Source: Promethearchaeota archaeon (GTDB taxonomy: Archaea > Asgardarchaeota > Lokiarchaeia > Sigyniarchaeales > SOKP01). Taken from it: a DNA stretch of 64,000 nucleotides. A model generated the notes under the pieces. That model ran no database searches. It was not told the DNA's origin and worked only from the letters and a program-made list of their open reading frames with translations. The stretch is taken from contig JAHPZJ010000023.1 of NCBI GenBank assembly GCA_019058245.1, positions 34,028 to 98,027 of the forward strand, written 5' to 3'. Position numbers and translations under genes: made by a program. Positions 1-20,210 of this stretch are shown piece after piece. Position 1 is the first letter of the stretch; each line of letters opens with the position of its first letter.

Positions 1-65
1 TTTTTGCATTGTTCTCTGTTTATCTCAACCTTAAAATAATTAAGGATTTCATGCACAATTGCCAT
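1..65 (-). CDS. 5' end of a probable ferredoxin-led glutamate synthase FMN-binding subunit (GltB2-like), truncated by the window edge
   Basis: Read by hand: ATG at 65 behind GGAGG (74-78), translating MAIVHEILNYFKVEINREQCK. It overlaps the stop of the GATase gene. The product is inferred from context and the ferredoxin-like start. Confidence 0.55.
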   Translation of the reverse strand, partial: MAIVHEILNYFKVEINREQCK

Positions 66-1260
66 TAACTAAACCTCCTTCATATTTTGATTTTAGTTTC
101 ATCAAAGATGGTTCGAGACCATTTCTGACTAATCCTTTCCCTAACATGGCAATAGTTGCTGTCCCGCTTTTGGGATGCCAAATTTCTTTCATTGAAAAAT
201 TATTATTTGAGGAAGTCAATCGTTTAAATGAGGCTTCTTCACTACTCATGTATATAGTATTTTCATCATCCGAAATTGCTGCAACTAGAGGTCTTAATTT
301 CTTTCTATCAGTTAATCCAATCATTGTAGGAACGGGGTTTGAATACCCAACAACAATGGAAAATGGTCCATTTAACATTGCACTCCTGTATGTTGCTCTT
401 ATTGATTTAAGAATTATTTGATCTTTCTTGTCTAACTTTTCAATCTCATCATATAATGGAGGTGCCAATGCCATAGTTGCAATGGATAATGGTAATTTGT
501 GTTTACGACATAATAAATCGAATAAGTATGCAATGACTTCTGTATCAGTGAAAAGAGTGCATTTATACCCATATGAACTTAAATATCTTTGATTCGTTCC
601 ATAAGAAGTTATTTCTCCATTATGTATAACTGAACAATTTAACAAATTAAAGGGATGAGCACCCCCCCACCATCCAGGAGTATTAGTAGGAAACCTAGAA
701 TGTGCTAACCACATATATGCATTATAACCTGAAATCATGTAAAAATCAGCAATCTCATGAGACCAGCCATTTCCTTTAAATACACCCATATCTTTACCAG
801 ATGACATAACAAATGCATTATTAATATTTGCATTGATTTCCATTACAATCTTTAATATTATTTCATCTGGTTCAAGATTATTGCTTTTTTTAGGATCGAA
901 AAAAGCTCTCCAGATAATTGGGGGATTATCAATATTAGTTGGTGTATTTGTTGGAATAGCTTCTGATGCGATAATTGTACCATTATTTCCTAAATAATGC
1001 AAAGTGTTTGTTTTTGCCGCAATAGTGTCGAAAAGGAAATGAAATGCGTAGTAATCCTTATATTTTGGATAGATACCGTAAGCCGCAAAACCCGCTCCTA
1101 ATCCATTTTCTCTTTCCTTTAGAATACTTATCATATCAATAACTTTATCACCTGAAACTCTACTACCATCAATATTAATAAAACCAGAGATTCCACATCC
1201 ATCAAATACCCTCTGATTTCTGTATTGTTCTGGTAATGATGTATAGTTTTCCCATCTCAT
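49..1260 (-). CDS. Glutamate synthase amidotransferase subunit (archaeal GltB1, class II GATase)
   Basis: Motifs CGISG, ERENGLGAG, HSRFPTNT, HNGEI and DRKKLRP. Start refined to ATG 1260 (MRWENY) behind GGAGGAG. Confidence 0.88.
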   Translation of the reverse strand: MRWENYTSLPEQYRNQRVFDGCGISGFINIDGSRVSGDKVIDMISILKERENGLGAGFAAYGIYPKYKDYYAFHFLFDTIAAKTNTLHYLGNNGTIIASEAIPTNTPTNIDNPPIIWRAFFDPKKSNNLEPDEIILKIVMEINANINNAFVMSSGKDMGVFKGNGWSHEIADFYMISGYNAYMWLAHSRFPTNTPGWWGGAHPFNLLNCSVIHNGEITSYGTNQRYLSSYGYKCTLFTDTEVIAYLFDLLCRKHKLPLSIATMALAPPLYDEIEKLDKKDQIILKSIRATYRSAMLNGPFSIVVGYSNPVPTMIGLTDRKKLRPLVAAISDDENTIYMSSEEASFKRLTSSNNNFSMKEIWHPKSGTATIAMLGKGLVRNGLEPSLMKLKSKYEGGLVNGNCA

Positions 1261-1264
1261 GTTA

Positions 1265-2605
1265 TTACTCCTCCAGTTTGGTATTTTCTCTTTCAATTAT
1301 ATTAAATAGTTCTTTTAAATCTCCAACATCAGGTTTAACGGTTGGCAATCCAACCCTTTTTCTAGCTGTTTTTGAAAGCATTCCTATGATTCCTTTGTCA
1401 TGGAATGTGTTAAATTCATTTTCATATCCTTTAGTAATAAACCCTCTTTCTTTTGCTAAATTTCTTAAAACTGTAAAAATTTTGATTAATCCGACATCAA
1501 ATGGACAAAGCTCAAAACATAAATAACAGTCGAGACACATCCAAATAGCAGGATCCGAAATTACTTCATTTAATTTTCCTTTAAGAATCTTACCTATAAT
1601 CATATTAGGACTAAATTCAGTCATCTTTGAAATGATGCAATCATTATCACATGCCCCACATGAGTAACATTTAATTAAAAAATTTAAATCAAAGAATTTT
1701 TCTATCTCTTTGTTCTTTTCCTGGATAAGATCAATCTTTTCAAAAAATGAATCTACTTGAGTTCTATGATGTTTCTTAATAATATCTTTGATGTCTAAAC
1801 CTAATGCAATACATAATAGTTCAGAATAATATAACACAGGGATGTCATATATAGCATCATTTTTTTTTAATTCCTGTTGCAGATGATCAAATTGCATATA
1901 ACATTGAGGACAACAGACAACAATGCAATCGATATCTTTTTCTTTTATACTGTCTAATTTCGCCTGAATAATTTCTAAAGATAAACTCGTATTTCCGGCT
2001 CTCTCAAGACTGCCTCCACAACAATCCATTTTAAGATCATAATCAATACTCTCAGCACCCAAATCTTCAATCAACTCATCAAAAATTTTTGGTTCTATAG
2101 GATCATCTGTCTGGACTTTATTGCTTGGTCTGAGGAAATGGCATCCATAATGCACCGCAACTCTTAATCCAGTCAAGGGGTATCTTAAATTATCTGCAAT
2201 TGTACTTCTTTTGAACTTATAAATAAATTCAACCAGATGAAATACTTCAGATTGACCCTCTGCTTTAATGTCAATCTTATCTAAGTAATTATTTATTTTC
2301 CTTTTGAAATGGGAATCTGTATTAAGTTCTATTTTTATTTTTTTTAATGTTGTAAAACAACCATTACAAGGTGTTAAAATTGCTTTATTTTCAACCTCGG
2401 CAAGTCCAAGATTGCGAGCAGCGGTAATAGAATATAACAACTTATCACTATTTTTAATCCCATTTGGATCTGGACAACAAGAAAATTTAGGGTTTTCAGC
2501 AAATGGTATTCCGAGATTATCTAACACTTTTCTTATTGAAACTTCAATAAAGGGAAATCTGTTTGCTATCACGCATCCCGGGAATAACATTATTTCTTGC
2601 TGAAT
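1265..2605 (-). CDS. Heterodisulfide reductase B-C fusion (two CCG domains plus C-terminal 2x[4Fe-4S])
   Basis: HdrB motifs FPGC, CCPDP, PCNGC, HYGCH, DCCGG and CCPQC. HdrC motifs CYSCGACDNDC and WMCLDCYLCFELCP. Start is ATG 2590 or ATT 2605. Confidence 0.88.
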   Translation of the reverse strand: MQQEIMLFPGCVIANRFPFIEVSIRKVLDNLGIPFAENPKFSCCPDPNGIKNSDKLLYSITAARNLGLAEVENKAILTPCNGCFTTLKKIKIELNTDSHFKRKINNYLDKIDIKAEGQSEVFHLVEFIYKFKRSTIADNLRYPLTGLRVAVHYGCHFLRPSNKVQTDDPIEPKIFDELIEDLGAESIDYDLKMDCCGGSLERAGNTSLSLEIIQAKLDSIKEKDIDCIVVCCPQCYMQFDHLQQELKKNDAIYDIPVLYYSELLCIALGLDIKDIIKKHHRTQVDSFFEKIDLIQEKNKEIEKFFDLNFLIKCYSCGACDNDCIISKMTEFSPNMIIGKILKGKLNEVISDPAIWMCLDCYLCFELCPFDVGLIKIFTVLRNLAKERGFITKGYENEFNTFHDKGIIGMLSKTARKRVGLPTVKPDVGDLKELFNIIERENTKLEE

Positions 2606-2792
2606 TTTTTTTAAACCTCTTGTATTATTTTAATTTTTTAGAAAAATATAGAGAAAAATTAAGTAAAAAAGCTAAAAATATAACTCAATATTTTTAAATT
2701 AGTATAGTACCATCTTTACTATCGGGTTCTTATACTTTTTATCAATCAATATCATAATTTTTTGCTTTTTTTTCAATTTCATTTTTTTATTT

Positions 2793-3301: not shown

Positions 3302-3502
3302 TTATTCAAGGATATAAATTGAAGAGTCAACTTTTTTAGAAATTTGATTATTATTACAGTTCATTTTAGAAGTACAATTCCATTTATATTCTTTCTGTTT
3401 CTCACTAAATATACTTCCAAAACAAATAGTATTATTTTCGCATTGATGGAAAATAAACTTACCATAGGAATACTCATTCCTACAACATGGACATTTTATC
3501 AA
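3302..3502 (-). CDS. Small Cys-rich Zn-ribbon-like protein, short paralog of 10119..10472
   Basis: KCPCC...HQCE...KWNC aligns with KCPVC...CQVCE...KWNC. TTG start behind GAGGT. Confidence 0.6.
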   Translation of the reverse strand: MIKCPCCRNEYSYGKFIFHQCENNTICFGSIFSEKQKEYKWNCTSKMNCNNNQISKKVDSSIYILE

Positions 3503-3550
3503 TTTTTAATTACCTCGTAAGATTTTTATCGTTTTTTCTATTTCATCAAT

Positions 3551-3772
3551 TTAATTTTCTTCAGAAACTTCATATAAACGTGGCTTCGTATTATTATATA
3601 TTTTTAATTTTTCTGGTGTGGTTTCTTGAATTCTCTTTATGATTTTTATCAAACCATTAGAACTATTATACCCCATTGCTGTCGACCATTCTGCTACCGA
3701 TGATCTTCCAAGTTCTCTCAATTTATCTAAGCATATTTGTTCGTATGTTTTAAACGTTTCCTGTGAAGTCAT
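3551..3772 (-). CDS. Small putative winged-helix DNA-binding protein
   Basis: 73 aa with a helix-turn-helix-like pattern (SVAEWSTAMGY...LIKIIKRI) and a wing-like end (KPRLYEV). Confidence 0.55.
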   Translation of the reverse strand: MTSQETFKTYEQICLDKLRELGRSSVAEWSTAMGYNSSNGLIKIIKRIQETTPEKLKIYNNTKPRLYEVSEEN

Positions 3773-6754: not shown

Positions 6755-7252
6755 TTACTTTTTTTCCCTTTCTTTCCCAATCAAATCCACAAAAGAACTG
6801 GATTCTTTAATGGTGTTTAATACAAAATGAGTATTTGTACGCTCTACATTTGGAGATTTATGAATTTGCTTTATCATTTTACTTAATTCCTCTCGCGTTT
6901 TAAACTTTGCTAATATAAGAGCATCATAAGTTCCTGTGATATCGTAAACAGCAAAAACATTAGGATTGTTAGCAATTTCTTCTTCAACTTCGAACATTTT
7001 TCCTTTGGAAATGGTTACTTCAATAATTGCTACAACTTCATATCCTAATCGCTCAAAATTAATCTTGGCACCATAATCTACTATAATACCATTAGTCTCT
7101 AGATTTTCAAGGTGATTTTTAATAGTAACTGGGGATTTATTGCCTAAAGCTTTAGCAATTTGTCGAAGAGAGAATCGACCATCTGTACTTAGTTTTTTCA
7201 GGATCTCAATATCTAAGTCAGATAAATCATAAGTACTCATTCGTTCAGTCAT
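6755..7252 (-). CDS. Lrp/AsnC family transcriptional regulator
   Basis: LSDLDIEIL...DGR HTH and YDITGTYDA RAM motif. Start refined to ATG 7252, about 25 nt downstream of TTTTATATT. Confidence 0.92.
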   Translation of the reverse strand: MTERMSTYDLSDLDIEILKKLSTDGRFSLRQIAKALGNKSPVTIKNHLENLETNGIIVDYGAKINFERLGYEVVAIIEVTISKGKMFEVEEEIANNPNVFAVYDITGTYDALILAKFKTREELSKMIKQIHKSPNVERTNTHFVLNTIKESSSFVDLIGKEREKK

Positions 7253-7292
7253 ATTATTAGTAAGATAATTAATTAATATAAAATTATTCATT

Positions 7293-7329
7293 TGTCCATT
7301 AAATATAAGAAAAAAGACCCATATGATCA
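7293..7329. promoter_or_regulatory. TGTCCA / TGATCA boxes 31 bp apart, upstream of Lrp1
   Basis: TGTCCA at 7293 and TGATCA at 7324. The TATA-to-box context closely matches the Lrp2 upstream region (11393-11425). Confidence 0.5.
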
Positions 7330-7444
7330 TGTTATTGTCTTTATCTTACAAGTCCTTCAATAATGATTTTATTATAATGATTTAAATTTTCTAGATTCTT
7401 GATTTCTATTATCATTTAATTTGTTATATAAGAGAGTATTTTTT

Positions 7445-8147
7445 ATGAAAAATGTATCATATATTAGATTTAACGAGGCGGATATACTTCAAAAAGCAAG
7501 CAACGAAAAGTGGATTGGAAATGGAACTTCAGAAAAGCCTTTTATAATCGAATCTAGCACAGCGTATTACTATATCCCTCCATACTTAAAAATATCTCTC
7601 TATACATTGTAATAAAAAACTGCACATTCGATAAGATCTTTTTATCTAAATGTAAAAATTTCAGGTTTGAGGATGTTCTTTTAACTATTTAGAGTTATCT
7701 AAATGTTCGGAAATTGAAATTAATAATTGTTCCTTTGAAGACAGATTAAAACTTCATAAAATTGCTAATGTGTCTATTCAAGATTCTCTTATACCATCTC
7801 TTTTTCTTTTTGTATGTTATGAAAATCATTTTAATAAATGTACAATTACTGAAATCCGTAATAAATTTAGTAGAGCTAATAAATTTTAAAATAATTCTAC
7901 TCATGTTGATTTATATAATATTTTAAGTGATAATTTGATATCTATTCTTCTTAAAAATTTAGGATTTGTTGGGCTAGGAATCATTTTCTTACTAGGTCTA
8001 ATATTTTTATATTATACTTATTCCGATAGTTTTCCCCATATGAAGACTCTTTTTTTTAGACTTAGTATTATTTTTTTTGTAATCCCTATTATTAATTACC
8101 AAGCTTATAATAAAACGAAAAATTATCCAGATAATCAAATTAGTTAA
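7445..8147 (+). pseudogene. Degraded beta-helix-like repeat membrane protein (paralog of 8294..8938)
   Basis: Starts with GNGTSEKPFIIE and has xCxF repeats. Two frameshifts and a TAA at 7887 where the paralog has GAA. Confidence 0.75.
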
Positions 8148-8237
8148 AAAAGATTAGGATAATTTAAATATATAAATAATTAAACCTCTGTGGCTCTCAA
8201 ATTTAAATATTAATAAACTTATATAATACATGAAATC

Positions 8238-8321
8238 ATGAACCAAATGAATAATGAATTTGTCTTATACAAAGGGGCAAAGATCGAAGTGAAAAATGGA
8301 GTGGAAATGGAACTTCCGTAG
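8238..8321 (+). pseudogene. N-terminal relic of an LRR gene (paralog of 9025), fused out of frame to the next gene
   Basis: MNQMNNEFVLYKGAKIEVKNGV matches MNNSKVEFVLYKGNKIEVRNGV. Confidence 0.75.
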
Positions 8322-8938
8322 ATCCCTTTATCATTGAAACTACTCATTCATTCTCAGATGATTCTGTTATCAGAAACACATATTTACACATATTGGTAAG
8401 GAATTGTGAGTTTGGTTTATTATCTTTAAAAAAATGTAAAAATTTCAGATTTGAGAGTTGTACATTTGAGGTTTTAGGATTATCTAAATGCTCGGAAATG
8501 AATGTTAAGAACTGTTCTTTCAATCATTCAATAGAGATTCGATATGGTCAAAATATACATATTCAGAACTCTCATATACCATTTCTTATCTTTTCCATGA
8601 GTTATGGAAACTATTTTAAAAACTGTACAATTAACAAAATTTTTAATTACTTCAGTAGAGCAAATAAATTTGAAAACATTAATTCACCTGGTAATTTTAG
8701 TATTATTTTAAGAGAAAGTTTGAAAAAATATTATCTAAAATGCCTAGGACTTATTATAGTAGGAGTTATTTCTCTATTATCTGCCATTATAATTTTTTCT
8801 AATAATTATGCGGATTCAGTTGATTGGTTATTAGTAGGAGGTCTAAGCTTAATGACTATTATCACTTTTACAATAACTATCGCTCTTTACCTTGATTCTA
8901 GAAAAATGAATCATCTTTCAGATAATCAAGTTATTTAA
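8294..8938 (+). pseudogene. 5'-truncated beta-helix-like repeat protein with 2 C-terminal TM helices
   Basis: The frame is open from KWSGNGTSVDPFIIE but the native start is missing. The only available start is TTG 8393. Confidence 0.65.
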
Positions 8939-9024
8939 ATAAGATTAGTTATTTTTCAAAAAATATAAAGAATTAAATCTTCTTAACTCTTAAATATAAG
9001 TATGAAAAAAACTTTCACGAAATT

Positions 9025-9747
9025 ATGAATAATAGTAAAGTAGAGTTTGTTTTATACAAAGGAAATAAGATCGAAGTAAGAAATGGAGTATTAGAACTCC
9101 CATATGATATTGAATTTGAAACCTTCGATGAAATTGAAGGGCTTGAAAAAATGACCTCCTTGAAGAAATTGAAATGCAAATCATTTTACCTTAAAAAAAT
9201 AGATAACCTTGAACACCTCCAAAGTCTAGAGTCTTTAATTCTTAAAGAAAGCCCTTGGCTCACTAAAATTGAAAATCTTGGCACCCTTACTAATTTAAAA
9301 CTCCTCAATCTTACTGATAGTCATATTGCTGAAATCGAAAATTTAGAAAACCTTAGAAATTTGGAAGTCTTGATTCTAAGAAAATCATTTTTTAATAATA
9401 CCTACGAAAATTATATTACAGAAATTAAAGGCCTTGAAAATTTAATTAACTTAAAAAACCTCGACCTGTTTGGTAATAAAATCAAAATAATTAAAGGCCT
9501 CAATGCTCTAATCAATCTTAAAATTTTATGTCTTACCTGTAATCAAATTACGGAAATTAAAGGGCTCGAAAATTTAATCAATCTAGAACAATTATATCTT
9601 GAACATAATAAAATTACTAAAATAAAAGGACTTGAGAACTTTGGCAATTTAAAGGTATTAAGAATCCAAGATAACGGTCCTTTTGATGAAGACTCTATTA
9701 GTCGCTTAAAAGATATGAAAAATTCAGGGATTGACGTCTGGTATTGA
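9025..9747 (+). CDS. Leucine-rich repeat protein (SDS22-like)
   Basis: Repeated N.ITEIKGLENL.NL..L.L units. Confidence 0.92.
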   Translation: MNNSKVEFVLYKGNKIEVRNGVLELPYDIEFETFDEIEGLEKMTSLKKLKCKSFYLKKIDNLEHLQSLESLILKESPWLTKIENLGTLTNLKLLNLTDSHIAEIENLENLRNLEVLILRKSFFNNTYENYITEIKGLENLINLKNLDLFGNKIKIIKGLNALINLKILCLTCNQITEIKGLENLINLEQLYLEHNKITKIKGLENFGNLKVLRIQDNGPFDEDSISRLKDMKNSGIDVWY

Positions 9748-10069
9748 GAATATTTTTACTACTCAAGTTAGCGAATATCCGTTTTTAAAAGTATGAGTTA
9801 TTAATTGATCTTTTAATGTATCCTACTTCTGTTAAAAATTTTAGAATTTTTATATTAATTTATGCAGGTGTTCATTATGAAATAAATATATTGACCCATG
9901 TGATCATTTTATATCTCGACAAAAATCATAGGTTAAATCAATTGATCACTTTCTAAGTATAATATATATCAAGCACTAATATTTGTTTCCAATTATGTAA
10001 GCAAATAAGGTAAAAAATGTGAAGGTTTATATATATGTGATCACAATTATATTTATAGAACAAAAAATG

Positions 10070-10085
10070 AGGGAATTAATTCCCT
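10070..10085. promoter_or_regulatory. Perfect palindrome AGGGAATTAATTCCCT (GGGA-N6-TCCC)
   Basis: 16-bp perfect inverted repeat about 33 nt upstream of ATG 10119. Confidence 0.55.
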
Positions 10086-10118
10086 TTAAATAATAAAAAA
10101 TTTGAAAAATGGTTAAAA

Positions 10119-10472
10119 ATGTCATTAAAATGCCCTGTTTGTGGAACGGAATATTATCATGACCGAAAAATATGTCAAGTATGTGAAGATAAATCAATCT
10201 ATAGTGGTTTAATATGTACTGATGAAAATAAACCTCAAAAGTGGAATTGCGATATCTTCTTAGAATGTGATACATTAGCATTTGGAAGATATAAACCAAA
10301 TAATGCTTATGTTCAAATCGCCAGTGAACCGAAATTTTCAGACTTTAATACAAAAAATGCATACAACTGGAATTGTGTTTCAATAAATAAAATTGAAAGT
10401 ATAGAAGCACCATTAATAACATTTCCAACGATTCCTAAAAGAGATGTAAATACTTCACTGGTTTATGAATGA
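10119..10472 (+). CDS. Zn-ribbon protein of unknown function
   Basis: CPVC...CQVC with two WNC motifs. Confidence 0.75.
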   Translation: MSLKCPVCGTEYYHDRKICQVCEDKSIYSGLICTDENKPQKWNCDIFLECDTLAFGRYKPNNAYVQIASEPKFSDFNTKNAYNWNCVSINKIESIEAPLITFPTIPKRDVNTSLVYE

Positions 10473-10870
10473 AAACTTGAAGATTATGTTTCGTATAATC
10501 TTAACCAAATTTCAAATCAAATAATTTTATTAGAGTTTTTTGATAATTTTTTTCTGTATTGATTTTCTGTAAGAGGAGTACCACTATCAATTAATCCATT
10601 ATTTTTACAATATATTAATTTCGAATATATTTCAAAACGTGCTTTTAACACTACCTATTGTTTAAATCTTGTTTTTAACTATTTTTACTTGGATAGAAGC
10701 TTCTTTGAAAATGCTACTTCGCTAGAATTTCAATTGATTTATTTCTTTTTTTATTTCTCTTTTAATTTTCTTTTGTTGAAAGCTGAATAAATTTTTTTCA
10801 ATTAAAATACCATAAGAAGTTTTGAGAATCAATTTTAAAGTGGATTTTAAAATTTAAAATTTAATCTTAA

Positions 10871-11356
10871 TTATTTCTGCTCGGATAATAGTTCCTCTGA
10901 TTGTATCAATTGATTAAAATCAGTTCGTTCTTTAATTACATTGAGTACTAAATGAGTATTAGTTTTTACTATATATTCCAAACTGTTTAAATTTTTTACA
11001 AAAGTATTCAAATCTTTACGAGATTTAAATCTTGTTAAAAGTACTGCATCATATTCTCCAGTTATGTCATATACGCCAAAAATGTGTGGATCTTGGGATA
11101 TTCCGCGCTCTATCTCAATCATCTTACCTTTAGAGATGGTTAATTCGATTAGTGCAATTATATCAAATCCCAGTTTTTCATAATCAATATTTAAACTATA
11201 ATTTTTTATGATTTTAGCTTCTTCTAATTCATTAATATGTTTATTAATGGTGGTTGGAGATTTATTTAATCTGTCAGCGATGGGACGTAGCTTTAATCGT
11301 GAATCTTCATTTAAAATACCCAAAATTTCTAGGTCTAATTCCTCTGCTTTTTTCAT
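10871..11356 (-). CDS. Lrp/AsnC family transcriptional regulator, divergent from glnA1
   Basis: HTH plus YDITGEYDA; close paralog of the 6755 gene (shared ISKGKM). Confidence 0.93.
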   Translation of the reverse strand: MKKAEELDLEILGILNEDSRLKLRPIADRLNKSPTTINKHINELEEAKIIKNYSLNIDYEKLGFDIIALIELTISKGKMIEIERGISQDPHIFGVYDITGEYDAVLLTRFKSRKDLNTFVKNLNSLEYIVKTNTHLVLNVIKERTDFNQLIQSEELLSEQK

Positions 11357-11411
11357 TTTTTATCTACCTATTAATAATATTGTACGATCTTAAATATAAA
11401 TTATTTCATTT

Positions 11412-11590
11412 TGTCCAATGAATTTGGAGATATATTATAATATTTCCAATTTAATTATTTATTGTTATTAAAATTAGATCACTTGTCCAGAATTTATTTT
11501 AATATAATTGTATATGTCCAAAAATACTTAATATTATTGAACAGAGGCAAAGTTTTTATAATGATTATACAATATTTGATCATAATATAA
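11412..11590 (+). promoter_or_regulatory. glnA1 promoter with phased TGTCCA boxes and TATA
   Basis: TGTCCA at 11412, 11484 and 11515; TTTCCA 11443; TGAACA 11538; TTTATA 11555; TGATCA 11577. Confidence 0.75.
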
Positions 11591-11640
11591 CTTTTAAATA
11601 AAAATATAACTAGAAAAAAAAATATAATTTAAGAAATATT

Positions 11641-13143
11641 ATGACATCAACAAAAGTTAGTCTTCAAAGCGGTAAGATTAGTCCAGATTTAGAAACGATT
11701 AGTACCGCGAAAAAGATATTAGAACAAGAAAAGGTAAAATTTGTCCTATGTGCATTTACTGACGTTCGAGGAATATTTCAGAGTTTTACTACTCCTGTAC
11801 ACCATTTTTTGAAAGGAGATCAATATTTTGAAACTGGAATTGGGTTCGATGGTTCTAGCATAAGAGGCTTTAGAGAGCTTCATACAAGTGATATGATTTT
11901 TTATCCAGATCCTCAAGCACTATATGTCCTCCCATGGACAGAAGGAATTCAAAAAACAGCGGTTATAATAGGTAGTATAAGAGAGCCTTTTGGGAGTATA
12001 GAAGCGGCAGATTGTGATCCTCGAGGTTATGTTGGTCAGCGAGCAGTAGATAAAGCTGCTAGTATGGGATATACCCCATATTTTGGACCTGAAATTGAGT
12101 TTTTTGTGTTTAAATCGATTGATCCAAGTACCTTACACTATGATCTTTTTGTTAGTCCTAAAGGCGGTGCTGGCGACAGTTGGGGACCCCCTCGGGTTGA
12201 TCCAGTATCACCAGAAACGGATATTGGAGGGTACATCTTACGACCTAAGGAAGCATATTTTAGAAATCCCCCAGAAGATACAACTTATGCTTATCGTAAT
12301 GATCTCACATATGCTCTTGAAACAATGGGATATACCGTTGAGATGCATCACCATGAAGTTTCAACAAAAGGTCAAGTTGAACTTAATTACCGATATAGCG
12401 ATTTAATTGATACAGCGGACAAAGTCCAAATATACAAACTCGCAGCAAGAAACATTGCTGCTAAATACGGATGGATCGCAACATTTATGCCGAAACCTAT
12501 TTATTTAGATAACGCAAGTGGAATGCATGTCCATAATTCAATATTTAAGGACGGTGAGAACGCTTTTTGGGATCCTGATGATGATTATGCGGAAATAAGT
12601 CAAATATGTCGGTATTATATTGGAGGTCTTTTAGAACATGCTGAAGCTCTAACAGCAATCTGTTGTCCAACTGTTAATTCATATAAGCGATTAGTACCTG
12701 GTTTTGAAGCACCAATAAACATTATGTATAGTAGAAGAAATAGATCGGCATTAATCCGTATACCAATGTATCTAAAAGGTGAAAAATATAAAAATCGTCG
12801 AAGACTAGAATATCGAGGGGTGGATCCTTCAACAAACTCTTATTTTGCATTTGCTGCTATTCTTACTGCAGGATTGGATGGAATAAAGAAGAAAATCGAT
12901 CCTGGTGATCCAGTAGATAGAGATGTTTATGAAATGTCAGAATCAGAGAAAAAAGCCGCAGGGGTAAAACAATTACCAACTACTTTAAAAGATGCGCTAG
13001 ATGTATTAGAGAGTGATTCAATATCTAAAGAAATTTTAGGTTCACATCTCTATGATGCTTTTGTAGAATACAAAACAAATGAATGGAATCAGTACTGTCT
13101 TTATGTAACTCCATGGGAGATTATGAAGTATCTAGATTACTAA
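11641..13143 (+). CDS. glnA: Glutamine synthetase type I (long form with GSI-beta-like insertion)
   Basis: FDGSSI, GPEIEF, HHEV, FMPKP, SGMHVH, SYKRLVPGFEAP, NRSALIRIP. Confidence 0.95.
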   Translation: MTSTKVSLQSGKISPDLETISTAKKILEQEKVKFVLCAFTDVRGIFQSFTTPVHHFLKGDQYFETGIGFDGSSIRGFRELHTSDMIFYPDPQALYVLPWTEGIQKTAVIIGSIREPFGSIEAADCDPRGYVGQRAVDKAASMGYTPYFGPEIEFFVFKSIDPSTLHYDLFVSPKGGAGDSWGPPRVDPVSPETDIGGYILRPKEAYFRNPPEDTTYAYRNDLTYALETMGYTVEMHHHEVSTKGQVELNYRYSDLIDTADKVQIYKLAARNIAAKYGWIATFMPKPIYLDNASGMHVHNSIFKDGENAFWDPDDDYAEISQICRYYIGGLLEHAEALTAICCPTVNSYKRLVPGFEAPINIMYSRRNRSALIRIPMYLKGEKYKNRRRLEYRGVDPSTNSYFAFAAILTAGLDGIKKKIDPGDPVDRDVYEMSESEKKAAGVKQLPTTLKDALDVLESDSISKEILGSHLYDAFVEYKTNEWNQYCLYVTPWEIMKYLDY

Positions 13144-13145
13144 TT

Positions 13146-13157
13146 ATTTTTTTTTTT
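13146..13157 (+). terminator. Oligo-T archaeal terminator after glnA1
   Basis: T-run directly after the stop codon. Confidence 0.5.
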
Positions 13158-13430
13158 CAAAAATTTTAAGAAGAAAAATCTAAGAAATAATAAAAAAAAT
13201 TATTATAACCATAGATGTATTGGTTGTTATATTATTACAATTTTCAAAAAATAGTTTTGAGCAATAATACCATTATTAAATCAAATTTTAGAATAGTAAA
13301 TTATCGAAATATATCGTTATGAGTCTAATGTAGGAGATATATTAATCAAAAAGTGATTAATTAATTTTCCAACTCAGAAAATTTATCCAAGGATATAAAT
13401 AAATTAAAAAAAGAAAAATGTGAAAAGAAT

Positions 13431-14390
13431 ATGGTATATAGTAGAAGTTTTGAGAGAAGTATAATTAAACTTGGTAATTCTATGGCAATAACATTTCCTC
13501 AGGAATGGTTCCAAAACTCAGATTTACAGGAACATTCAAAAGTATTTGTTCTCCCCGTTGATGATGATACCTTAATTATTCAAAGAAATAATTATATAGA
13601 TTCTGACTCAATTTTGCACATAGATTTAAATAAATGGCCTTCAGATCTATCAGAGCAATTAATTTTAACTGCTTTCAAACTGAATGTAGATCAATTATAT
13701 GTGAAGTATGATCTCAAGAAAAACAAACAAGATTATTTAGTTATGATTAACAAGCTTCAAAGAAAAATAATAGGCTTTGATTATAGTGTATTAAATGATA
13801 ATAGTGGTATAATTATTCGATTTTTATTAGATTCTACAAAAACCACCTTACCTGAAATTTTGATTGAATTGTTTAATACTCTGAAAGAATTTATTATAGG
13901 GGTGCTTGATAAATCATTGGTAATTGATCAAGGTATTTATCAAGAAAAATTTGCGCGAAAATATCATCTAGGAATACGATTATTGCTTGCAACTCTTTTA
14001 AAATATCCTAAATTAGAAGGTGCTATTAATAGACCAATTATTCGTACACTTGGAGATAGAATTACATTGTTATATTCTAGAGAATTAATGAATCATGTTC
14101 TTGCAATAAAAAATCTACCAAAAGAAATGTTGGAAAAATATTCACAAATTCTAATTGATTTCTCTGATCTAATCTTGAGTATCATTGAAAAATATAATAA
14201 TAATATTAAGGAGGAGCTTTTAATATCTTTTCAAAAAAAAATAGATAAATTAAAAAAATCACTTGATACCATTGATCTTGACATAAAACAAGAGGAAAAT
14301 ATGATTAGAAATGTTATATCAAGATTCTTCAGTATTTGTACAGATTTAATAGAAATATCAATTACAAGAATATTAGAAGCGAAATTGTAA
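13431..14390 (+). CDS. AbrB-domain / PhoU-like archaeal regulator
   Basis: N-terminal RSIIKLGNSMAITFPQEW (AbrB-type) followed by helical bundles. Confidence 0.7.
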   Translation: MVYSRSFERSIIKLGNSMAITFPQEWFQNSDLQEHSKVFVLPVDDDTLIIQRNNYIDSDSILHIDLNKWPSDLSEQLILTAFKLNVDQLYVKYDLKKNKQDYLVMINKLQRKIIGFDYSVLNDNSGIIIRFLLDSTKTTLPEILIELFNTLKEFIIGVLDKSLVIDQGIYQEKFARKYHLGIRLLLATLLKYPKLEGAINRPIIRTLGDRITLLYSRELMNHVLAIKNLPKEMLEKYSQILIDFSDLILSIIEKYNNNIKEELLISFQKKIDKLKKSLDTIDLDIKQEENMIRNVISRFFSICTDLIEISITRILEAKL

Positions 14391-14396
14391 TAAAAA

Positions 14397-14984
14397 ATGA
14401 ATGAATTAGAAAATAGTCACAAAATAAAAAATAGGATAACTATTGCAATAGATGAAGATACAAAACTAATATTAAATAAGCTAAATAATCACTCGGAAAG
14501 TTCTCGATCTGAAACAATAAGAAAAGCAATTAAATTTTATCATAAATTTAAGAAAGTGTTTGATAAAAAAGAAAATGGAGTATCTGCTAAGGTGAACACT
14601 TACTTAGAATTACTCTCTCATGGAGAACACATTATTTTAGATGTAGATCATTATTTAAGTTTCTTAAAGTTCATAGAAAATTCACCTGAAAGAGAAAAAT
14701 TTGAGGACATAAATAAATCAATAGGAAGAGCTCATGCGGAAGAATTTTCTCAGGATCTTGATATTACAACTGTACAGAAAGTGGTGGAACGTCTTGAAGC
14801 ATGTAATTTCTTTAAAATTGTTAAAGATTCATCAAATAGATACACATTATTATTGGGTTCTGATATTCAAAAAAACTTCATTAAAACTTTTCTTGAAGAA
14901 GTGTTAAGAGGTATGGGTTTCAATGTTCAAGTAAAAGAAGGCTTCTCAAAACTTAAAATTAGTTTGGATAATATGTCTTATTAA
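14397..14984 (+). CDS. Ribbon-helix-helix (CopG-like) regulator with a C-terminal putative ligand-binding domain
   Basis: RITIAIDE...SRSETIRKAI; starts 6 nt after the previous gene. Confidence 0.75.
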   Translation: MNELENSHKIKNRITIAIDEDTKLILNKLNNHSESSRSETIRKAIKFYHKFKKVFDKKENGVSAKVNTYLELLSHGEHIILDVDHYLSFLKFIENSPEREKFEDINKSIGRAHAEEFSQDLDITTVQKVVERLEACNFFKIVKDSSNRYTLLLGSDIQKNFIKTFLEEVLRGMGFNVQVKEGFSKLKISLDNMSY

Positions 14985-15033
14985 AATAATTTTAAAAAAA
15001 AATTAAAAAAAAGACTAAAAAATTAATTTGTAT

Positions 15034-15375
15034 CTATAAAATATCTTCACCTTTCTCTTTTGTCCTGATTCTTATTGCATTTTCAATGGGAATTATAAAT
15101 ATTTTTCCATCGCCAGGTTTGCCTGTTTGAGCATTTTCTATAATGGTATTAATAATTTCATCGATATTTATTTTATCGCTAATAACTATCTCCAGTTTCA
15201 ATTTATCAATCCATTCGACACAATATTCCCCAGTTCTCCCCACAAACTTTATTCCCCTTTGACTGCCATGTCCTTTGACTTCATTTACGCTCATTCCTTT
15301 AATTCCTTTATCAAATAATCCAGATTTTACAGCTTCTAATTTTTCTGGTCGTATAAAACATTCAATTTTTTTCAT
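15034..15375 (-). CDS. glnK: PII nitrogen regulatory protein
   Basis: MKKIECFIRPEKL, TGKPGDGKIF and RIRT motifs; directly downstream of amtB. Confidence 0.95.
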   Translation of the reverse strand: MKKIECFIRPEKLEAVKSGLFDKGIKGMSVNEVKGHGSQRGIKFVGRTGEYCVEWIDKLKLEIVISDKINIDEIINTIIENAQTGKPGDGKIFIIPIENAIRIRTKEKGEDIL

Positions 15376-15393
15376 TTTTATTTTATACCTCCT

Positions 15394-16593
15394 TTATACT
15401 TTTTCTCCATGGATTGAAATATCTATTCCAACATACTCTTCTTCCTCAGATGCTCTTAAACCCATAAATTTATCAATCACTTTAGCTATTACCCAAGTTA
15501 CTACAAAAGTATATACAATTGTAACTATAACTCCTACTGTTTGAGTCCATACTTGTCCAGAGTTGCCTGTAATTAAACTTGTAGCCCCCACACTAGCAAA
15601 AATTCCAGTAGCAATTGCTCCCCAGATACCACCCCATCCATGAACAGCCCACGCATCTAAAGATTCATCAATTTTCGATTTTGAACGCCAAGTAAGTGCA
15701 CCATAACAGATTGCAGCAACAACAGCTCCAATTATCAATGCAGCCCATGGTTGAACATAGCCAGCAGCAGGAGTAATTGCAACTAGTCCCGCTAAACCAC
15801 CTGTTGCTAATCCAAGAACACTAAATTTTCCTGTTTTATAGTATTCTATAATCATCCAAATTAAACCAGAAGTACTCGCCGCTATGTGAGTATTAACCAT
15901 AGCTAATACCGCAGTACTGTTTGCAGCTAAAGCACTTCCACCATTAAATCCAAACCATCCAATCCAAAGTAGTCCCATTCCAAGTAATACATAAGGAATA
16001 TTTGAAGGCTCCATGGGTTCTTTCTGATATCCTTTCCTTGGACCAATAACCAAGGCGATTGCTAAAGACGCAAATCCTACATTTATATGAACGACCGTGC
16101 CTCCAGCGAAATCTAGGGCGCCTAGAGCTTTTAACCACCCGCCATCACCCCAAACCCAATGAGCTATAGGAGAATATACTATTACGAGCCAGATTGAAAT
16201 AAATATCATGAATGCCTTAAAATTTACTCTCTCTGCGAAAGGACTTGCTATAATCGCTACAGTAATTATTGCAAACATTAACTGAAACACCATATATAAT
16301 AGATGTGGTATTGCATCAGAATATACTGGATATGCATCCGTTCCTACTCCAAAAAGTCCAAGGAAATTAAAACCTCCAATAAATCCACCACCAATATCAG
16401 GAGCAAAAGCAAAACTATAACCAATTATAAACCATGCAACTGTTACAATTGATATTGAGACAAAACACATTGCCATCATATTTATAATATTCTTTTTACG
16501 TAATAGCCCCCCATAAAAGAATGCTAGACCCGGAGTCATAATAAAAACTAACCCAGTACATATTAAGACAAAAGCTATATCTGCACCCGCCAA
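15394..16593 (-). CDS. amtB: Ammonium transporter
   Basis: PGLAFFYGG, FQLMFA, DFAGGTVVH, WFGFNGGS and AVHG (twin His retained). TTG start. Confidence 0.96.
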   Translation of the reverse strand: MAGADIAFVLICTGLVFIMTPGLAFFYGGLLRKKNIINMMAMCFVSISIVTVAWFIIGYSFAFAPDIGGGFIGGFNFLGLFGVGTDAYPVYSDAIPHLLYMVFQLMFAIITVAIIASPFAERVNFKAFMIFISIWLVIVYSPIAHWVWGDGGWLKALGALDFAGGTVVHINVGFASLAIALVIGPRKGYQKEPMEPSNIPYVLLGMGLLWIGWFGFNGGSALAANSTAVLAMVNTHIAASTSGLIWMIIEYYKTGKFSVLGLATGGLAGLVAITPAAGYVQPWAALIIGAVVAAICYGALTWRSKSKIDESLDAWAVHGWGGIWGAIATGIFASVGATSLITGNSGQVWTQTVGVIVTIVYTFVVTWVIAKVIDKFMGLRASEEEEYVGIDISIHGEKV

Positions 16594-16877
16594 ATTTATC
16601 CACTTTTTTAATATTTTAATTTTATTAATATAATTACTTTTAATTTAGATAATATATATTAAATCTTAAATATAATGAAGAATATGAACTATAAAAGGTT
16701 AATTGAGAATTAAAATTATAGGTTAAGATCATTTAGTTAATTTTATTAACAATTATGCATTGTATAATAACAAATTCTTTCATTTTATGAAAAAGTATGA
16801 ATTACTCATAATAGTATAAATAAATAATAATCATTAATCAAATTATAAAGGAAAATTATCTAAATTCTTATAATATC

Positions 16878-18533
16878 ATGAGAAAATTAAAAATTTGTAT
16901 AGGGCAAATTAATCCAATTGTTGGAGATATTGAATATAATGCAGATAAAATCATTACAATTATTAGAAAAAATCAAGATGTTGATATTATTGTATTTCCG
17001 GAAATGGGTCTTGTGGGATATCCTCTGATGGATCACATTCATGATCCGTTAATTAAACATAAAAACTCAGATGCTATTAAAAGAATCAAAAATCTAAATT
17101 CTAAAGCTTCTGTTATTTTAGGAACATTTACAGAACCTAAAGAATTAAAAGGTAAGTTTCAGCCTTTTTACAACTCAGGTTTAGTTATTGAAGGTGAAGA
17201 ATTAAGTTATATTGAAAATAAAAGACTATTGCCAAATTATGATGTATTCGATGAGAGAAGATACTTTTCTTTCGATAACAAGTTTAAACCTGTGAAAATT
17301 AAAGGAGTGAAATGTGGGATCTTAATTTGTGAGGACATATGGGATGAACATTATGAGAAAAATGTTTCAGAGAATTTGGTGATGAATGGAGCAGAAATAT
17401 TGATAGTAATTAATGCTTCTCCATATCATATTAATAAATTTAAACAAAGGGTTGAACTTATTTCTGATAAAGCTAGAAATCTAGCAGTTCCTATCTTTTA
17501 TATTAATATGGTTGGGGGTCTTGACGAAATTATATATGATGGACAGAGTTTTGTAAGTAATAAGTATGGTCAGATAATTTTCAAAGCGAAAGCGTTTGAA
17601 GAAGATGACCCTATTGTAGAAATAGCAATTGATTCAGATAGTCCTATTGAAGAAATAAATTATGAAATAGATTGGAGAGAAGAAGTACTTGAAGCACTTA
17701 AATTAAATATAAGAGATTATTTTTCTAAAACGGGTTTTTTTAAAGGTATAGTTTTAGGATTAAGTGGGGGAATTGATTCAGCTTTTACTGCTTATACTTG
17801 TGCTAAGGCAATTGGATCGGATAAAGTAACGTGTATTATGATGCCAACCCGTTTTACTTCAGAACAGAGTATTAATTTAGCTCGTGATTTATGTGAAAAC
17901 TTAGATATAAAATATATCATTCATCCAATTGACGATATTTTTCTGAGCTATAATCAGGATTTTAAGAAAAATTTGGGAGATTTACCATTTGATATTGCAG
18001 ATGAGAATCTACAGGCTAGAATTCGTGCAACAATATTAATGTATTATTCCAATAAATTTAATTGGCTATTAGTTTCCACAGGCAATAAATCTGAGATAGC
18101 TGTTGGATATTGCACGCTTTATGGAGATACCTGTGGGGGAAAGAATATTCCAGGAGATCTTTTAAAAATACAAATCTATGATATTTGCAAATGGATTAAT
18201 CGAGAAAAAGAAGTAATCCCTAAAGGTATTATTGAAAGACCTCCAACTGCTGAATTGAGAGAAAATCAAAAAGATGAAGACTCATTACCACCTTATAACA
18301 TATTAGATCTTATTTTGAATGAGATTATTAAACATGGAATAGGCAATGAATTAAATCACTTGGAAAAAAAAGCAATTGATAAAGAAACCATAAATTATGT
18401 AAGAAAATTATACTTGAATTCAGAATTTAAACGTAGGCAATTAGTTCAATCAATAAAAGTGAGTGAAAGTGCCTTTGGTATAGGACGTCGATATCCAGTA
18501 TTAAAAAAAATAAATTTAGATAATGAAATTTGA
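16878..18533 (+). CDS. nadE: Glutamine-dependent NAD+ synthetase
   Basis: Nitrilase triad (FPE, NKRLLPNY, ICED) plus SGGIDS, ENLQARIR and TGNKSE. Confidence 0.95.
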   Translation: MRKLKICIGQINPIVGDIEYNADKIITIIRKNQDVDIIVFPEMGLVGYPLMDHIHDPLIKHKNSDAIKRIKNLNSKASVILGTFTEPKELKGKFQPFYNSGLVIEGEELSYIENKRLLPNYDVFDERRYFSFDNKFKPVKIKGVKCGILICEDIWDEHYEKNVSENLVMNGAEILIVINASPYHINKFKQRVELISDKARNLAVPIFYINMVGGLDEIIYDGQSFVSNKYGQIIFKAKAFEEDDPIVEIAIDSDSPIEEINYEIDWREEVLEALKLNIRDYFSKTGFFKGIVLGLSGGIDSAFTAYTCAKAIGSDKVTCIMMPTRFTSEQSINLARDLCENLDIKYIIHPIDDIFLSYNQDFKKNLGDLPFDIADENLQARIRATILMYYSNKFNWLLVSTGNKSEIAVGYCTLYGDTCGGKNIPGDLLKIQIYDICKWINREKEVIPKGIIERPPTAELRENQKDEDSLPPYNILDLILNEIIKHGIGNELNHLEKKAIDKETINYVRKLYLNSEFKRRQLVQSIKVSESAFGIGRRYPVLKKINLDNEI

Positions 18534-18612
18534 AGAATTTCAATATAATTTTTACATAAAATATTATCTTATTAATAAAATTGTATCATCTTCATCTTAA
18601 ATGGGATTCTTT

Positions 18613-18791
18613 TGTCCAGTGAATTTTATCAATTATCATAAATTTTTCATTATAATTTAGGTTCTATAGAAAATTTAATAATCTTGTCCAGAGAATATTC
18701 TAGGATTTGCTTTTCTGTCCATAATATATAGGTTTTACTGGTCAAATATAAACCTTTATATATTGTTTCACACTATTTGTTCATAATATAA
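18613..18791 (+). promoter_or_regulatory. glnA2 promoter with phased TGTCCA boxes and TATA
   Basis: TGTCCA at 18613, 18685 and 18716; TTTTCA 18644; TGGTCA 18739; TTTATA 18755; TGTTCA 18778. Confidence 0.75.
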
Positions 18792-18857
18792 TTTAAAAAA
18801 GAAAATATAATTTAGTATAATAAAATATATTTGAAGAAAAAAATAGAATGAAAAGAA

Positions 18858-20210
18858 ATGATTGAAAAAGATGATCCAGAACGCTGGAAAATTTGCGATA
18901 AAGTTATAGAGACGGTAAAAGAGCAGGATATCAAACTAGTTTACTTTCAATGGACCGATATTCATGGTATACTTAAATCATTTGAGATTAATGCAAAACG
19001 AATCGAAGATTTTCTCCAAGATGGAGAACATTTCGATGGAAGTTCAATTACTGGATATGGAGCTATAGAAGAATCCGATAAAACTGCTATACCAGATCCT
19101 AGTACTTTTGCAATTATGCCTTGGCGAAAGGAGAAAAAAGTCGCTAGATTCATCTGTGATATATACAAACCAGATGGAAATAGATATGAAGGTGATCCGC
19201 GTTATATCCTTCAAAAAGCAGTTAAAAAAGCTTCTGAATTTGGATATACTTATTATTGCGCTCCTGAACTTGAGTTTTTCGTAATCGATACAGATACTGA
19301 GAAGGCATTTAAACCTGGCGATTTGCGTGGATATTTTGATTATGATCCTTATGATATCAACGAACGAATGAGATATAGGATTAATGAATATTGTGATGCT
19401 ATGGGAATTGAAACTGAAGCAATACATCATGAAGTTGCCTATGGTCAACATGAAGTAGATTTTAAATATGATAAAGCAGTAACATCAGCGGACAATACGG
19501 TTACCCTTAAAACCATAATTAAAACTGTTGCAGCTGAAGATGGTATGATTGGAACCTTTATGCCAAAACCATTTGCAGGTATCAATGGTAGTGGTATGCA
19601 TGTTCACCAAAGTATGATGAAAGATGGAAAAAACGCTTTCTATGATGAGAAGGATAATAATTATATATCAATGACCATGAAGAAATTTATCGCAGGACAA
19701 TTAAAACATGCAAAAGCGATGTGTGCAGTGTTAAGTAGTTGGCCAAACTCTTATAAACGTCTAGTTCCTGGATATGAAGCTCCAGTATATATAGCTTGGG
19801 GTTTTAGGAATAGATCACCATTAATAAGGGTCCCCGATTTTAGTGGAAAGCCAAGTTCTGCTCGCTGTGAGATACGATGTCCAGATCCTGCAGGGAATCC
19901 CTATCTTCAATTTGCTGTTTTATTAGCGACAGGTTTGGAGGGAATAATATCTGATGATATTGAAGTTCCTGAAGCTACTGATAAAAATGTATATCATTTT
20001 TCATCCAAAGATCTTGAAAAAGCAGGAATTGATGCATTACCGGGAAGTTTAAGGCAGGCCATTATAGAATTTAGGAATTCAGAATTTATGAAAGAAATAT
20101 TTGGAGAAGAGCCTTGGAAAAACTTCTATTATGCTAAATTGGAGGAATTTGACGCCTATAGAATTAATGTAGGTCAATGGGAAAGAGATAGATATATTGT
20201 AAAATTGTAA
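18858..20210 (+). CDS. glnA: Glutamine synthetase type I (GSI-alpha-like)
   Basis: FDGSSI, APELEF, HHEVAYGQHE, NGSGMHVHQS, SYKRLVPGYEAP. Confidence 0.93.
   Translation: MIEKDDPERWKICDKVIETVKEQDIKLVYFQWTDIHGILKSFEINAKRIEDFLQDGEHFDGSSITGYGAIEESDKTAIPDPSTFAIMPWRKEKKVARFICDIYKPDGNRYEGDPRYILQKAVKKASEFGYTYYCAPELEFFVIDTDTEKAFKPGDLRGYFDYDPYDINERMRYRINEYCDAMGIETEAIHHEVAYGQHEVDFKYDKAVTSADNTVTLKTIIKTVAAEDGMIGTFMPKPFAGINGSGMHVHQSMMKDGKNAFYDEKDNNYISMTMKKFIAGQLKHAKAMCAVLSSWPNSYKRLVPGYEAPVYIAWGFRNRSPLIRVPDFSGKPSSARCEIRCPDPAGNPYLQFAVLLATGLEGIISDDIEVPEATDKNVYHFSSKDLEKAGIDALPGSLRQAIIEFRNSEFMKEIFGEEPWKNFYYAKLEEFDAYRINVGQWERDRYIVKL

Follow-up and report, generated by a model that had tools for sequence, protein, structure and literature searches.

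A fused HdrB-HdrC protein leads a split glutamate synthase operon in a Lokiarchaeon and may feed it thiol-derived electrons

We analyzed a 64,000-nucleotide stretch of the genome of a Promethearchaeota archaeon of the class Lokiarchaeia (contig JAHPZJ010000023.1, G000:C23:34028-98027; 29% GC, 76% complete), referred to here as the window. At its left edge, a gene fusing HdrB-like and HdrC-like parts comes first in an operon with gltB1, gltB2, and gltB3, which together encode a split glutamate synthase; the order is hdrBC, gltB1, gltB2, and gltB3, all on the minus strand. The fusion gene (1265..2605) ends in a TAA codon (1267-1265), with just four bases (1264-1261) between this stop and the ATG of gltB1 at 1260. 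The gltB1 gene (49..1260) encodes a 403-residue class II (Ntn) glutamine amidotransferase subunit (Pfam GATase_2) with a DGCGI motif that holds the catalytic cysteine. It overlaps by 17 nucleotides (1260-49 against a start at 65) with gltB2, of which the window holds the 5' end (1..65) and which continues to G000:C23:32572. By its sequence and motifs, the 506-residue GltB2 comprises a 2x[4Fe-4S] ferredoxin domain, a flavin mononucleotide (FMN) synthase domain, and a [3Fe-4S] motif (PF01645, 424.8 bits). A further overlap of 14 nucleotides leads into gltB3 (C23:32585-31734, outside the window), which encodes 283 residues with a GXGXG motif (PF01493, 105.9 bits). Each operon junction carries a GGAG-type ribosome-binding motif, and the one before gltB1, GGAGGAG, lies inside the final hdrBC codons. 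Translational coupling of hdrBC and gltB1 is thus predicted, and gene spacing suggests cotranscription; a sigma-70 promoter scan, of a type ill-suited to archaea, scored at chance level. The original prediction, made from the window alone, had described an HdrB-then-HdrC fusion ending 4 nucleotides before an amidotransferase gene that overlaps a ferredoxin-led gene, and this arrangement is confirmed. It had also pointed to the adjacent DNA for gltB2 and gltB3, which both lie directly 3' of gltB1, and had named a canonical GltD in the operon as evidence against it; the operon contains no gltD.

The fusion is a single open reading frame without an internal stop across both parts, and a frameshift or assembly artifact was rejected as its origin because about 196 sequences carry it unbroken. 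Two CCG domains (residues ~5 to 291; 1730..2605, minus) form the HdrB-like part, which was delimited by alignment with HdrB chains of the Protein Data Bank (PDB) and by conservation across 196 sequences and is predicted to bind noncubane clusters. They are followed by a 2x[4Fe-4S] HdrC-like domain (residues ~312 to 434; 1265..1700, minus) with two CxxCxxCxxxC motifs (C313-C323 and C357-C367). Pfam recovers two CCG domains and Fer4_8. The NCBI models for HdrB (TIGR03288, 264.8 bits, residues 5 to 291) and HdrC (TIGR03290, 78.4 bits, residues 312 to 434) both match below their equivalog cutoffs of 345 and 160. An AlphaFold2 model has a mean predicted local distance difference test score of 91.6, and its HdrB part aligns with the HdrB chains of 8RVY and 5ODC at a TM-score of 0.93 by target. 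The order of the parts is the reverse of that in HdrD and TfrB, in which the cubane domain is N-terminal to the CCG domains; the HdrD-type proteins of the same genome likewise place the Fe-S domain first, in agreement with the original prediction. The start codon is probably an ATT at 2605 (446 residues) rather than the alternative ATG at 2590 (441 residues), since the ATT is kept at the same position in 17/17 Lokiarchaeia loci checked, several of which have an in-frame stop two codons upstream. A Shine-Dalgarno-like GAGGT (2613..2620, minus) precedes it, as in related loci. Gene callers shorten the protein past this ATT (window 2603-2605), and the first cysteine ligand is lost from the annotation in many genomes.

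We surveyed the conservation of this arrangement in samples that are related rather than independent but that span down to 32 to 38% identity and several gene orders, through all of which hdrBC stays attached to the glt genes. In the first 29 loci fetched, some of them duplicates, gltB1 lies directly 3' of the fusion every time, while the flanks are unrelated. The fusion occurs in 25/301 Asgard genomes and adjoins gltB1 in 24 of the 25; in the remaining one, both genes sit at contig ends. Among 161 Lokiarchaeia genomes, 58 carry gltB2. In 41 of these, hdrBC immediately precedes gltB1; the assembly splits the locus in 1, 7 give no information, 5 have a ferredoxin and NirB-like module instead, and 4 have no module. 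Metagenome loci add 74/80 fusions beside glt genes; five of the other six loci end within 77 nucleotides of the fusion, and the sixth (L182) is cut upstream and has no glt gene downstream. The adjacency on which the original prediction relied is thus conserved. Named hosts outside Asgard archaea are Methanoperedens, Thermacetogeniaceae, Nitrospinae, Acidulodesulfobacterium, Bacillota, and Planctomycetota. An unfused hdrB-hdrC pair, likewise in B-C order, also precedes glt genes. One genome (G080) carries both HdrBC-type and NirB-type glutamate synthase operons (L090, L091), and another (G379) has two HdrBC-type copies (L211, L212). A second Lokiarchaeia glutamate synthase type, found in three genomes (L081, L082, L083; G021, G030, G015), has, as judged by eye from N-terminal motifs, a GltB1-GltB3 fusion of ~811 residues and an extended GltB2 of ~820 residues, and it adjoins etfB/etfA-like genes.

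The phylogenies of both partners are consistent with a dedicated pairing. The fusions and the glt-linked split hdrB genes form one HdrB clade (Shimodaira-Hasegawa-like approximate likelihood ratio test, 93, quick search), within which the split genes nest among the fusions. This clade stands apart from the seven other HdrB paralogs tested; five of the seven canonical HdrB paralogs of this genome sit in hdrC-hdrB-hdrA operons. The GltB2 partners of HdrBC also form one clade (support, 100/100). A first GltB2 tree had nested NirB-type enzymes inside the HdrBC type, an arrangement that was dropped when the HdrBC type became monophyletic with more sequences. Of 40 bacterial loci selected because their GltB2 is similar, 5 carry HdrBC, 26 a ferredoxin and a NirB-like oxidoreductase, 3 a GltD-like protein, and 6 no module; two electron modules occur together in none of the 40. 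Since the modules replace each other and never appear as a pair, and since methanogens have been proposed to use an FrhB-like subunit at this place, the fusion appears to fill the electron input slot of the enzyme. A stand-alone HdrB of the fusion clade was also observed (L112:4911-7953); its operon includes a prismane-family (CODH/HCP) gene, and glt genes were not seen there.

The residues expected for thiol chemistry are retained. All 18 cluster cysteines, ten in the HdrB part (C11, C43, C44, C80, C83, C155, C195, C196, C232, and C235) and eight in the HdrC part, are conserved in at least 195/196 fusion sequences, with C11 present in 160/160 of those that cover it. The substrate site residue G82 is conserved in 194/196. 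In EMO, a relative that only relays electrons, a cysteine is lost and a histidine at the matching position blocks the thiol site, while TfrB is a case in which thiols act as the electron donor (bioRxiv 10.64898/2026.08.18.745454). Where EMO has this histidine, just ahead of the last CxxC cysteine, the fusion has a glycine, which indicates an open thiol-binding site; the correspondence of G82 to the histidine is taken from the numbering in the same source. The substrate loops read CCP[ED] and CCGGSL in the fusion, against CCPAPG and CCGAGGG in methanogen HdrB.

A second set of residues bears on contact between the partners. The best discriminator in GltB2 is Arg25, in the first ferredoxin motif, which is present in 104/104 HdrBC-linked sequences and 0/35 NirB-linked ones; the same motif has a charge of +3 or +4 in 98 of the 104. 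On the other side, the fusion carries a net negative charge in its first HdrC motif in 184/196 sequences, with Asp322 present in 186/196, whereas canonical HdrC is neutral in 11/12. An acidic HdrC motif would thus face a basic GltB2 motif, a suggestive pattern that fits direct electron transfer. We regard physical docking of HdrBC with GltB2 as quite likely.

Taken together, we think it reasonably probable that the fusion is a dedicated, thiol-oxidizing electron input subunit, the fourth of this split glutamate synthase. Because it accompanies the enzyme across archaea and bacteria, replacing the usual donors, it probably supplies thiol-derived electrons, and the retained residues make thiol oxidation the somewhat favored chemistry of its HdrB domain. 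In the mechanism that we propose, the fusion and an archaeal-type GltB1-GltB2-GltB3 would form a four-subunit enzyme. The HdrB domain would oxidize two thiols to a disulfide at two noncubane clusters, reversing the role of methanogen HdrB and sharing the chemistry of TfrB. The two cubanes of HdrC would then carry the electrons to the GltB2 ferredoxin domain and on to the [3Fe-4S] cluster and FMN of GltB2, where FMN would reduce the imine that 2-oxoglutarate forms with ammonia released from glutamine.

Several thiols could serve as the donor. In five bacterial loci, lipoamide dehydrogenase (Lpd) is encoded inside the operon, and four of these also contain a free lipoyl domain. A six-gene Thermacetogeniaceae operon (L125), for example, runs gltB3-lpd-lipoyl-hdrBC-gltB1-gltB2. 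Elsewhere, the Lokiarchaeon encodes three Lpd homologs, two GcvH-type proteins, and LipS1-LplA-LipS2. The case for a lipoyl route is good in the bacteria with the insertion but only plausible in the Lokiarchaeon, because almost all members of its class have Lpd and GcvH. If thiols are the reductant, a dihydrolipoyl protein rereduced by NADH via Lpd is the leading, albeit tentative, candidate in this organism. In five genomes of the class (L303, L304, L305, L306; G000:C6:129551-147694), Lpd also precedes a canonical hdrC-hdrB-hdrA operon by 0.7 to 11 kb, a hint that lipoyl proteins may be substrates of Lokiarchaeal Hdr enzymes. The lipoate assembly cluster of this genome, LipS2-LplA-LipS1 (L109:4976-7821, G000:C14), has a stand-alone hdrC 5 kb away. 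Coenzyme M and coenzyme B (CoM/CoB) are a plausible donor in Methanoperedens, but "heterodisulfide" (CoM-S-S-CoB) is a doubtful term for the Lokiarchaeon, in whose 76% complete genome ComA was not found, other CoM routes not having been searched. The lipoamide potential lies near -290 mV. Glutamate synthesis from CoM/CoB or lipoamide is computed to be downhill by ~16 to 46 kJ/mol. The potential of CoM/CoB is reported as -138 or -281 mV (PMC12054007).

Other observations weigh against a thiol-fed, dedicated subunit. The charge and Arg25 counts are not independent, because the pattern arose once on the tree. A few HdrB proteins of the clade have no glt link, such as P0180, which lies beside a prismane-family gene. 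The Lpd and lipoyl insertion is confined to a few, mostly related bacteria and is present in no Asgard locus; finding Lpd and GcvH alongside the fusion is uninformative given their near universality in Lokiarchaeia, and two fusion-bearing genomes, 92% and 98% complete, yielded no Lpd. Finally, four Lokiarchaeia (G033, G122, G229, and G261) keep gltB1-3 with no fusion found anywhere in the genome, so the subunit is not obligatory. Their GltB2 is still under purifying selection (dN/dS of about 0.06 to 0.14 versus 0.03 to 0.06), which is perhaps slightly relaxed, and the genus of these genomes keeps the operon in only 6/42 genomes. The enzyme may accept ferredoxin as a second donor, or these genomes may represent early stages of operon loss. 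One of them, G122, carries a broken 3' hdrBC remnant before intact gltB1-3 (L084:7164-7500), indicating a recent deletion.

The alternative that survives best, although we judge it unlikely, is that the fusion carries out no thiol chemistry and only relays electrons from electron transfer flavoprotein, ferredoxin, or another flavoprotein encoded elsewhere, as in EMO/EtfD. Noncatalytic noncubane domains do exist, etfAB accompanies the other glutamate synthase type of the Lokiarchaeia, and the substrate loops differ from those of methanogen HdrB. Unlike EMO, however, the fusion retains the ten HdrB cysteines and the open-site glycine, and some operons contain an inserted Lpd and lipoyl domain.

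The persistence of gltB1-3 without HdrBC in the four Lokiarchaeia, and without any module in 6/40 bacterial loci, would also suit a ferredoxin-dependent enzyme with which HdrBC is merely coregulated, for instance, to balance the thiol/disulfide pool under nitrogen limitation, with no direct transfer to GltB2. We regard this as improbable: the strict mutual exclusion with other electron modules, the predicted translational coupling, and the attachment of hdrBC across several gene orders all argue against it, as does the alteration of Arg25 in two of the four loss lineages.

Equally improbable is a fusion that binds HdrA or HdrA-MvhD encoded elsewhere and draws on flavin-based bifurcation, a coupling that the original prediction had raised. 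The genome does hold many hdrA and mvhD genes, and an hdrCBA operon lies next door in five Methanoperedens-type loci. Across the survey, though, hdrA is near only 5/128 loci, each time with its own hdrC-hdrB, and the hdrA of this genome likewise accompanies its own hdrCB, so a direct bifurcation partnership is unsupported. Moreover, the fusion departs from canonical HdrC in the motif expected by analogy to face the partner, and because glutamate synthesis from thiols is downhill, bifurcation is not needed. An indirect link to HdrA through a shared thiol pool is possible. The other part of the prediction, a thiol-linked HdrBC feeding an enzyme that lacks GltD, has gained from the synteny, module exclusion, ligands, and covarying residues and stands as a putative function. 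The weakest alternative, in which the complex runs backward to oxidize glutamate while HdrBC reduces a disulfide as an electron sink, agrees with the usual activity of HdrB and with the description of Lokiarchaea as amino acid fermenters but is highly improbable given the retained amidotransferase cysteine, a reaction strongly downhill toward glutamate, the assimilatory neighbors, and a separate gdh-nfnAB cluster available for catabolism.

The operon lies in a nitrogen island. On one side (window 6755-20210) are an Lrp-type regulator and, outside the operon at 11641..20210, genes for glnA (11641-13143, plus), PII (15034-15375, minus), amt (15394-16593, minus), nadE (16878-18533, plus), and a second glnA (18858-20210, plus). 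On the other side is nfnA-nfnB-gdh (G000:C23:22302-25951), ~6 to 9 kb past gltB3 and beyond two opposite-strand genes. Its GltD-like nfnB was rejected as the missing GltD, since it is not part of the operon, sits together with nfnA and gdh, and is seldom close by in relatives. Frequent neighbors across loci are glnA, amt, PII, and an NtrC-type regulator, which indicates an assimilatory context. A 549-residue GltB2-like FMN protein is encoded 370 nucleotides after gltB3 (G000:C23:29713-31362; L001:9689-11335, minus); many loci have its gene close to the operon at variable positions, and L177 has it inside the operon. Upstream of hdrBC, two small open reading frames of 66 and 73 codons (window 3302-3772, minus) resemble frames that precede gltB1 in G261 and G229, and the 73-residue product has no NCBIfam match. 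Among other Hdr-related genes, an HdrB gene lies within a membrane-bound group 4 hydrogenase-like operon (L107:4875-12884), and three MvhD copies (G000:C13:38121, C17:90686, and C28:244065) have two in-frame TGA codons that probably encode selenocysteine.

No publication on the pairing of hdrBC with glutamate synthase was found in the literature searched, which had few subscription papers. If the enzyme is fed by thiols, a core step of nitrogen assimilation in anaerobes, including Asgard archaea and Methanoperedens, would gain a further class of donor. A bolder reading, which we hold to be rather unlikely, is of a widespread thiol-dependent glutamate synthase in which HdrBC oxidizes protein-bound dihydrolipoamide (CoM/CoB in Methanoperedens) and passes the electrons to GltB2. 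If true, it would define a new class of glutamate synthase donor and would suggest that Asgard Hdr enzymes take lipoyl proteins as their thiol substrate. Which thiols are used by the many HdrBC homologs of nonmethanogens is a standing question, for which this small, HdrA-free system of four to six genes, with glutamate as a simple readout, offers a testable case.

Compared with the HdrB and HdrC of methanogen HdrABC (PDB 5ODC, 7BKB, 8RVU, and 9SFI), the fusion has the same fold (TM-score, 0.92 to 0.93 by target; 35 to 39% identity) and holds all ten noncubane and eight cubane cysteines. It differs in its B-then-C order, its operon without hdrA, its separate clade, its changed substrate loops, its acidic first HdrC motif, and its linkage to glutamate synthase. 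The putative F420-dependent FGltS(I)/(II) of methanogens, proposed from gene context (PMC3448663, PMC3087415), similarly combines a split glutamate synthase with an extra operon-encoded electron input subunit, but that subunit is FrhB/FdhB-like rather than HdrBC, and no FrhB/FdhB-like gene is among the annotated genes of the present operon. The type with a DmsB-like ferredoxin and a NirB-like FAD oxidoreductase (Monoglobus WP_320690860-863) shares homologous GltB1, GltB2, and GltB3 (about 40 to 55% identity), and its module occupies the same operon. Its input, however, is an NAD(P)H-type flavoprotein, its GltB2 has Val, Thr, or Ala for Arg25, and its module never occurs together with HdrBC. 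NAD(P)H-dependent (GltB-GltD) and ferredoxin-dependent glutamate synthases have the same catalytic domains and FMN/[3Fe-4S] motifs but a single-chain GltB and, as donor, GltD or free ferredoxin. The sHdr-LbpA system of sulfur oxidation resembles the present case in joining Hdr-like subunits with lipoate-binding proteins and LipS1/LipS2-type assembly. That system is dissimilatory and includes an HdrA subunit and sulfur transferases, neither of which is encoded in the fusion operon. The best functional analog is the thiol:fumarate reductase TfrAB of methanogens, in which thiols are oxidized by a noncubane domain that supplies electrons to a flavin site, where a biosynthetic product is made. TfrB nevertheless has its Fe-S domains first, and the fusion scores 64.7 against a cutoff of 385; the acceptor here would be the FMN of GltB2, and the thiol is probably not CoM/CoB in this organism. 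The fusion is therefore best read as a protein that works like Tfr but belongs to neither the HdrABC nor the HdrD/TfrB family.

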